Source of the DNA: Shigella phage Sfin-3
Strand: one strand, 5' to 3'
Sequence record: MN296515
Length of the DNA: 50,309 nt
Made by a program: the position numbers and the translations under genes. Of this stretch, positions 32,569 to 38,598 are shown piece after piece. Each line of letters begins with the position of its first letter. The stretch's first letter is position 1. The notes beneath the pieces are model-generated. The model was given only the letters and a program-made list of their open reading frames with translations, had not been told where the DNA came from and searched no databases.

Positions 32569-33021
32569 TTAACTAAAAATGCTATTGGTCGTTCCGATAT
32601 CTTCCTTCTTGACAACTCGCATAAACTTCTTGTTTTTGCAGCGCTTCTCAAGGCACTTGCCGTTCCCATCAAACTTCAGATCGAATCGCAGCCATGCGGC
32701 CCGAAATCCTTTGCAACCCTGTCGGCGATAAGCACGATGCGCCGCTTCAGCGCCTTGCCAGGAAATCATATTTCGATCCTTCCACCCTTGAACCGTCTGG
32801 TTGCTAACTTTCAGAGCCTTTGCGCAAGCCGCCGGACCACCATAATATTCAATAAGAGCATCCAATCGCGCTCTCAGTCCTGCGCGCGTTTCTTCTTTAT
32901 GGATATAAAATCCGCAGCGCTGGCGAGGCTTTTTATCTTTACCGCGTCGTGTTCCGTTGTTACCATTGATGTGACGTTTATCGATTTCACCAGTAGACTC
33001 TGCGATACGCTTCATATTCAT
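32569..33021 (-). CDS. Cro/YdaS-like HTH DNA-binding protein
   Basis: ATG 33021 with GGAGA RBS (track start 33093 would overlap the promoter); central ...ACAKALKVSNQTVQGW...RFDL resembles YdaS/Cro-type HTH; basic N-terminus. Confidence 0.5.
   Translation of the reverse strand: MNMKRIAESTGEIDKRHINGNNGTRRGKDKKPRQRCGFYIHKEETRAGLRARLDALIEYYGGPAACAKALKVSNQTVQGWKDRNMISWQGAEAAHRAYRRQGCKGFRAAWLRFDLKFDGNGKCLEKRCKNKKFMRVVKKEDIGTTNSIFS
32570..32584 (-). promoter_or_regulatory. degenerate palindrome copy (TAGCA-ttttt-AGTTA) at 3' end of Cro-like gene
   Basis: Encodes the C-terminal NSIFS* of the Cro-like protein; followed on minus strand by terminator 32522-32559. Confidence 0.3.
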
Positions 33022-33034
33022 ATTAATTCTCCTG

Positions 33035-33077
33035 TAGCACTTTTTGCTAAAAACGTTTACTGTATGCCGTGTATTAT
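33035..33077 (+). promoter_or_regulatory. composite promoter module for helicase operon (TAGCA-ctttt-TGCTA, 22 nt, -10 TATTAT)
   Basis: Palindrome 33035-33049; -10 33072-33077; GTG 33116; palindrome is also in the 5' leader of the divergent Cro-like gene. Confidence 0.55.
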
Positions 33078-33101
33078 ATCGTAAACGATACAACGATTCA
33101 A
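33073..33101 (-). promoter_or_regulatory. sigma70-like promoter for Cro-like gene (TTGAAT-17-TATAAT)
   Basis: Minus-strand -35 33096-33101, -10 33073-33078; its -10 overlaps the + strand -10 (33072-33077) of the helicase promoter. Confidence 0.55.
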
Positions 33102-37334: not shown

Positions 37335-37412
37335 ATCTTTATTTTGCTGTAGTATTAACACCGCTAATTTCATTTTCAGTAATGTATTTCATTATCATGT
37401 AAGGATTAAAAT

Positions 37413-38564
37413 ATGTCACAAGCTAAAATCACTACCGAGCAACTTATCGAAGAGCGCATGAGCGGCCTTACACTTCGCGAGATTGCGGAAAAGTACGGTA
37501 TGCACATCCGCACTGTTGAAGCTCGTCACGCAAAACTTGCAAAGGAAGGTCACTTCCACGGTAACGAGCATGTTGCTAAGAACGTACCGGAAGGATTCAT
37601 GGTAAAAGGCACATCAACGATGATTCGCGGCGATGGGACCGAGGTAGTGCGATGGGTTAAGACCGATCAGGACCGTGAGAAGATTGCGGCAATGATGGAA
37701 GCAGCGCGTATTGCATTCTGTGAAGACTTGCCGCGAGCAAAACCAACTGAGCTACTCACATCGCAAGGGCTTACAACCGCTATTGGCAAGCTGGCACTCT
37801 ACCCGGTGTTCGATCTTCACATTGGCGCGCTTGCTCACAAGCATGAATGCGGAGAGAACTACTCTACAGACGTAGCGGAAAAAGTGCTGAATGACTTCTT
37901 TAACTACGCGATCGATATTGCCCCGAACGCAGAGAAGGCTGTTCTGTTAATCGGCGGCGACTTCCTTCACTCAGACGGTCTTGATGCTGTTACCCCGGCA
38001 AGCGGTCACGTTCTGGATCAGGATTCACGATATGCGAAATTGGTGCATGTGGCTATTCGATCGGTGCGACGAGCTATCGACAAAATGCTGACTAAACACA
38101 AAGAGGTCGAAGTTCAGGTTATCGAAGGGAACCACGACCAGGCCGGAATGATTTGGCTACGCGCTGCAATGGCTGCATACTATGAGGACGAGCCGCGAGT
38201 ATTCGTTGACGTTAGTCCTATGATTCTGCATAAGACCCGCTGGGGAAATACCTTGTTGGGATACACTCACGGTCACACGATGAAAAAGGCAGACACGCGA
38301 CTTGCAGCGATGGCGGCAGACTTCCGTGCAGACTTCGGTGAAAGCAAATACGTGTATACTCACAGTGGACACTGGCACCATCAAACAATCACAGAACACT
38401 CGTTAGGTATTGATGAGGTTCACGGGCAGTTAGGCGCGAAAGATGCATACGCCGCGCGAGGCGGGTGGCGCTCATATCGCCAGGCGGCGGTAATCGTTTA
38501 CGATAAACAGTTTGGTGAAATCGGTCGATTCATCTATCGTCCAGAAATGACAGGATCGCACTAA
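37413..38564 (+). CDS. HTH domain fused to calcineurin-like metallophosphoesterase
   Basis: 383 aa; N-terminal LTLREIAEKYGMHIRTVE (sigma-region-4/LuxR-like HTH); then DLH, GDFLHSDG, GNHD, GHTM, GHWHH phosphoesterase motifs. Confidence 0.65.
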   Translation: MSQAKITTEQLIEERMSGLTLREIAEKYGMHIRTVEARHAKLAKEGHFHGNEHVAKNVPEGFMVKGTSTMIRGDGTEVVRWVKTDQDREKIAAMMEAARIAFCEDLPRAKPTELLTSQGLTTAIGKLALYPVFDLHIGALAHKHECGENYSTDVAEKVLNDFFNYAIDIAPNAEKAVLLIGGDFLHSDGLDAVTPASGHVLDQDSRYAKLVHVAIRSVRRAIDKMLTKHKEVEVQVIEGNHDQAGMIWLRAAMAAYYEDEPRVFVDVSPMILHKTRWGNTLLGYTHGHTMKKADTRLAAMAADFRADFGESKYVYTHSGHWHHQTITEHSLGIDEVHGQLGAKDAYAARGGWRSYRQAAVIVYDKQFGEIGRFIYRPEMTGSH

Positions 38565-38598
38565 TTGCTAAAAATACCCGAATGGACTCGGGTATAGT
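38556..38598 (+). promoter_or_regulatory. composite promoter module (TCGCA-ctaat-TGCTA, 22 nt, -10 TATAGT)
   Basis: Palindrome 38556-38570; hairpin 38575-38594; -10 38593-38598; ATG 38628. Confidence 0.55.

Follow-up and report, generated by a model that had tools for sequence, protein, structure and literature searches.

The window analysed here is the whole 50,309-nucleotide stretch of Shigella phage Sfin-3 DNA (sequence record MN296515). Its gene order runs helicase, VRR-NUC and Dam, then a gene for an HTH-metallophosphoesterase, then the lysis cassette, and the features of the HTH-phosphoesterase gene are as follows.

37401–37405, plus strand: Shine-Dalgarno-like AAGGA, read from the sequence, 7 nt 5' of the ATG
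37413–38564, plus strand: open reading frame of the HTH-metallophosphoesterase, ATG start, 383 amino acids by translation; ortholog of phage T1 gp16 (ST16), PHROG 704
37434–37544, plus strand: three-helix HTH, residues 8–44, with a putative recognition helix at residues 32–44 (IRTVEARHAKLAK)
37596–37727, plus strand: family-specific connector, residues 62–105, a beta-hairpin (KGxSTLYxxDGxxxxQWVKT signature) and a long helix
37779–38537, plus strand: calcineurin-type metallophosphoesterase domain, residues 123–375, from the AlphaFold2 model
37812–37820, plus strand: motif I, D134-L-H136 (FDLH), metal ligands, invariant in 120 relatives
37956–37976, plus strand: motif II, G182-D183-F-L-H186-S-D188, in the GD-x-x-H form; invariant G182 and D183, with H186 and D188 in ≥90% of relatives
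38127–38138, plus strand: motif III, G239-N240-H241-D242; invariant N240 and H241, with G239 and D242 in ≥90% of relatives
38268–38276, plus strand: motif IV, H286-G-H288 (HGHTM); invariant H286, with G287 in ≥90% of relatives
38367–38381, plus strand: motif V, G319-H320-W-H322-H323; invariant H322, with G319 and H320 in ≥90% of relatives

The gene and its family

Within the T1 gp16 family, the gene is a typical, conserved member. The open reading frame has 100% nucleotide identity with phage vB_EcoS_Chapo, the protein shares 72% amino acid identity with T1 ST16 (nearly complete over the first ~72 residues), and the PHROG 704 profile is matched with E = 5.1e-157 over residues 4–380, corresponding to profile positions 2–389 of 390. 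We see no substantial difference from T1 gp16, which occupies the same place upstream of the lysis cassette. The family comprises 4,633 clusters at 50% identity, has been found in 2,033 sequenced phage genomes and is among the commonest uncharacterised enzyme families of tailed phages. PHROG 704 and T1 ST16 carry the same label, 'DNA repair exonuclease', while other database names in the family include 'phosphoesterase', 'LysR regulator' and 'hypothetical'; all of these are homology-based guesses. TLS gp66, called 'proof-reading exonuclease', is taken to be an ortholog as well. A literature search, which also covered escape mutants, essentiality screens and transcriptomes of T1-like phages, found no biochemical or genetic work on any T1 gp16/PHROG 704 member or HTH-phosphoesterase fusion.

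Domain architecture

Profile searches with the single sequence do not establish either domain, given that all Pfam matches are weak. Metallophos (PF00149) reaches 15.7 bits against a cut-off of 21.5, Metallophos_2 (PF12850) 16.2 against 27, Sigma70_r4_2 14.8 against 25.7 and HTH_23 15.0 against 24.6, each with E ~0.01–0.02. NCBIfam returns just two marginal matches (TIGR02937 at 13.7 against 42.9), and phmmer finds no match in the PDB. The Pfam search proposed in the initial annotation therefore fails for the protein itself, but some of its relatives do match Metallophos and many match HTH families. Among the 120 relatives in our conservation set (31–67% identity), PF00149 is matched at E <= 0.01 by 27 and PF12850 by 18, few because the family is too divergent for these models. 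N-terminal matches in the same set are spread over HTH_1 (27), HTH_8 (17), HTH_50 (15), Sigma70_r4_2 (13) and GerE (8).

At the level of family and structure, both domains are established. The AlphaFold2 model (pLDDT 92.5) places the HTH helices (residues 8–16, 21–27 and 32–44) ahead of a phosphoesterase beta-sandwich, with the connector between them folded into strands 62–71 and 77–86 and a helix from 88 to 103/105. Within the connector, at least 90% of the 120 relatives retain G75 and W81, and residues 62–105 have no specific match in the PDB. The five motifs quoted in the initial annotation are all present (FDLH, GGDFLHSD, GNHD, HGHTM, GHWHH) and conserved in distant relatives; they represent the five two-metal motifs of the calcineurin-like superfamily (DxH, GDxxD/H, GNH[D/E], H, GHxH), and D134, H136, D183, N240, H241, H286 and H322 are invariant across all 120 relatives. 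Motif II has what we take to be the GD-x-x-H form of Mre11, GGDFLH here resembling GGDLFH there. PHROG 704, the AlphaFold model and residue conservation thus agree that the fusion of an HTH to a calcineurin-type metallophosphoesterase, first proposed from the letters of this gene alone, is real and has an intact catalytic site: a three-helix HTH, a hairpin-helix connector and a phosphoesterase with seven conserved metal or catalytic residues form one polypeptide.

This domain arrangement is the ancestral state of the T1 gp16/PHROG 704 family. Among 149 representative clusters, the homologous HTH segment can be detected in 128, and the Campylobacter phage homologs that have no HTH begin near the hairpin-helix connector. 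That the HTH is real and of a DNA-binding type agrees with the initial annotation, but its assignment to sigma70 region 4 or the LuxR type is not specifically supported, that class being one of several equally weak labels. All Pfam matches of the window protein stay below the gathering score, and the protein has neither the other regions of a sigma factor nor a receiver or ligand domain. The HTH is generic, with no single family favoured among the simple HTHs of LuxR/GerE, sigma-70 region 4, LysR, Fis and resolvases, and its role could equally be regulation or protein contacts.

Relation to known phosphoesterases

Among solved structures, the nearest folds are those of Mre11, SbcD and the proofreading exonuclease PolD DP1, all of them DNA nucleases, which makes an Mre11/SbcD-like nuclease with a targeting domain the best supported of the readings offered earlier. 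We lean, by a modest degree, towards the view that the window protein is a metallophosphoesterase from the nuclease branch (Mre11, SbcD, PolD DP1) that stands alone, is tethered to DNA and acts in phage DNA metabolism. Its two-metal centre would cut DNA phosphodiester bonds, as an exonuclease, a single-strand endonuclease or both. The HTH would supply the DNA affinity that Mre11 obtains from its capping domain and Rad50, and DP1 from its OB fold and polymerase subunit. Such an enzyme may prepare ends for recombination-dependent replication with RecE and Erf (RecE-like and Erf-like genes are encoded in the window); alternatively or jointly, it may break down host DNA for nucleotide supply.

The likeness to Mre11 and SbcD covers the nuclease-domain fold and the motif set, at a sequence identity of just 13–19%. 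Both of these proteins have a C-terminal capping domain and Rad50/SbcC-binding helices, whereas the window protein has the N-terminal HTH and hairpin-helix module in their place; its chain ends 8 residues past the phosphoesterase domain (375 of 383), which leaves no capping domain or Rad50-binding tail. No Rad50/SbcC ATPase was found in the T1 annotation or among the non-structural open reading frames of the window, and across 67 related loci it is absent from the 25 commonest downstream PHROG families, with no large recurrent neighbour cluster. PolD DP1 shares 13% identity and works with the polymerase subunit DP2, but T1-like phages encode neither a DNA polymerase nor DP2. The N-terminal region of DP1 is an OB fold, in contrast to the HTH and hairpin seen here. 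With no Rad50/SbcC partner, capping domain or phage polymerase, the T1 gp16 proteins form a separate stand-alone family. PdeM, the bacterial ligase-associated nuclease of the same superfamily, is much smaller (about 200 amino acids), has no HTH and is tied to an operon of ATP-dependent ligase and helicase that is absent from the window.

The same catalytic centre could also serve a small-molecule phosphodiesterase whose substrates would be cyclic nucleotides, cyclic oligonucleotides or messengers of the Ap4A type. Such an enzyme might, for instance, dampen immune signalling in the host, and the destruction of immune messengers by phages is a known theme. We consider this unlikely. In addition to the nuclease character of the closest folds, the HTH and hairpin-helix module would have no obvious role in a soluble small-molecule enzyme, and a literature search found no tie between the T1 gp16 family and counter-defence. 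The gene is also core to virtually all Drexlerviridae and not a variable accessory. As for the initial annotation's other option, a regulator coupling DNA binding to (cyclic) nucleotide hydrolysis, our results tip neither for nor against it.

If the family is a DNA-tethered, Rad50-independent nuclease, current database annotations would be corrected, and phages would be seen to build a minimal Mre11-type enzyme in which a simple HTH replaces the ATPase clamp.

Genomic neighbourhood

The T1 gp16 family is a Drexlerviridae core gene, the exonuclease–holin–endolysin–spanin module that includes it being present in 508 of 522 Drexlerviridae (PMC13164509). Its location varies elsewhere: in Jerseyvirus it lies within the tail-gene block and in Dhillonvirus upstream of the terminase genes. 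We clustered the open reading frames of 67 diverse IMG/VR loci and scanned the downstream pair against PHROG. There is no universal neighbour, the commonest cluster occurring in 13 of the 67 loci, and this lack of a conserved partner pointing to a pathway, like the varied location, counts against the nuclease-metabolism reading. The HTH-less Campylobacter phage homolog adjoins genes for a DNA ligase and a Holliday-junction resolvase.

In seven of the 67 loci, a HAD phosphatase of the PNKP type and a dNMP kinase lie downstream, an arrangement that fits nucleotide salvage. The phosphatase gene is the one annotated as 'polynucleotide kinase' (PMC13164509), an adjacency that might suggest end healing, in which the phosphoesterase would act as a 3'-phosphatase or 2',3'-cyclic phosphodiesterase on nicks in DNA or on cleaved RNA, much as its counterpart domain does in bacterial Pnkp. 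However, this neighbour corresponds to the HAD-type 3'-phosphatase domain of PNKP (PF25109, E = 7e-17) and is not a kinase. Since the T1-type 'Pnk' is itself a HAD phosphatase, the phosphoesterase would be redundant as a 3'-phosphatase, and we dropped the idea that it supplies the missing 3'-phosphatase of a kinase-only Pnk. Furthermore, neither a 5'-kinase nor a ligase is encoded in the window, where the HTH-phosphoesterase and 'Pnk' genes are 35 kb apart. A role in end healing is accordingly highly improbable.

A possible role in host-chromosome degradation

A more specific version of the DNA-tethered nuclease is suggested by phage T5, in which host DNA degradation requires A1 and A1 is sufficient for it; A1 is a predicted metallophosphatase described as resembling double-strand-break nucleases and polymerase proofreading subunits (bioRxiv 10.64898/2026.04.02.716235). 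The window protein could be the T1 counterpart of A1 (together with A2), a nuclease that destroys the host nucleoid and feeds nucleotides to the phage; this is possible, although the evidence is divided and we regard it as doubtful. A1 acts alongside the DNA-binding A2, and there are A1 relatives with an N-terminal HTH above Pfam thresholds, hence with the same HTH and phosphoesterase architecture. Both families are phage-specific, divergent metallophosphatases with predicted folds near the same two nuclease classes. They also share an NHD-x3-S-x-WL motif after motif III; hhalign of the phosphoesterase domains aligns 57 columns including it at a probability of 51% (E = 1.5e-4, for a single comparison). 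The dNMP kinase neighbour points in the same direction, and T1 is reported to degrade the host chromosome (Christensen et al. 1981; Roberts and Drexler 1981, the latter cited in PMC11447400). T1 mutants that fail to degrade host DNA are reported to transduce at a higher frequency.

Against this, the overall profile–profile relation to A1 is not significant, at 17–51% probability over short stretches: 17% in one comparison, 24.5% over the HTH regions only and 51% over the 57 phosphoesterase columns. T5 A2 has no similarity to the N-terminal module, and as a candidate homolog of it was rejected at an hhalign probability of 0.5%. A1 has 556 amino acids with a middle region of ~250 that the window protein does not have, and it is a pre-early gene, whereas the window gene comes last in the replication region and is not immediate-early by position. 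The RecE-like, VRR-NUC and HNH nucleases of T1-like phages could do the job as well. Finally, temperate phages, which are not expected to destroy the host chromosome, have the family too, namely Rhizobium phage 16-3 and five loci in which a Q-like antiterminator gene lies at +1 or +2 downstream.

Extended to the whole family, the proposal would be that T1 gp16 proteins are the long-sought nucleases with which T1-like phages, and many other siphoviruses, break down the host chromosome and recycle its nucleotides. They would be functional counterparts of A1 and A2 fused into a single chain, with the HTH loading a Rad50-independent phosphoesterase nuclease onto DNA; we offer this tentatively, as the less probable outcome. 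If true, 'HTH + phosphoesterase' enzymes would make up a class of DNA-degrading proteins that recurs among phages, in thousands of genomes, and has so far gone unrecognised. Proof of a DNA-tethered, Rad50-independent nuclease would also point to a candidate for the classical host-DNA degradation function of T1.

The TTGCTA repeat

Three elements at or just past the 3' end of the gene and a regulator gene elsewhere in the window bear on whether the HTH reads a repeated sequence element.

38555–38573, plus strand: direct repeat ATCGCACTAATTGCTAAAA, which holds TCGCA-N5-TGCTA, an imperfect copy of the palindrome TAGCA-N5-TGCTA
38574–38595, plus strand: hairpin, within the regulatory module 38555–38598 that overlaps the stop codon
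38593–38598, plus strand: TATAGT, within the same module
32569–33093, minus strand: gp23 homolog, a Cro-type regulator (P22_Cro match; PHROG 2856 'transcriptional regulator')

TTGCTA makes up one arm of the palindrome TAGCA-N5-TG[CT]TA. This palindrome lies within the repeat ATAGCACnnnTTGnTAAAA, a repeat already described for TLS, T1 and Rtp (PMC11447400). TTGCTA had been read as a -35-type hexamer, but its distance to TATAGT is 22 nt and it belongs to the palindrome, on which grounds we rejected it as a sigma-70 -35 element.

The HTH had also been put forward as the reader of the TTGCTA half, and in the fuller form of this idea the protein would be a transcription factor for TAGCA-N5-TGCTA, with the phosphoesterase as a sensor or effector, for example through hydrolysis of a nucleotide signal. 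The HTH is real, a palindromic repeat suits a dimeric HTH protein, and phosphoesterases of the Mre11 type usually form dimers. Within the Drexlerviridae the gene belongs to the core, as the repeat appears to, and it often adjoins late, lysis or packaging genes. However, the palindrome occurs 28 times in both the window and T1 but not once in the 42.7 kb of Jerseyvirus SETP13, and it is also missing from 11–13 kb of three Drexlerviridae-like loci with ~60% identity (L027–L029), although all of these encode the protein. Given that SETP13 has the fusion but no repeat, the data lend the reader idea no support. Nor does similarity to the HTH of the window protein follow the repeat, with identities of 49% in the repeat-bearing Webervirus and 51% in the repeat-free Jerseyvirus or Dhillonvirus (the 51% of SETP13 is like that of several Drexlerviridae), and recognition-helix positions 34, 37 and 39 differ between phages with the same repeat. 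The strictly conserved catalytic centre argues for an enzyme and not a regulator. A more economical candidate is the gp23 homolog, since both the window and T1 encode it whereas no homolog could be detected in SETP13. We therefore judge a reader function very unlikely, and the dedicated reader of the repeat is probably a protein other than the DNA-tethered phosphoesterase.

The module at 38555–38598 is a neighbouring element outside the function of the HTH-phosphoesterase. It divides two transcription units, that of the HTH-phosphoesterase ending there and that of DUF7244 (SH3), holin, endolysin and spanin starting.

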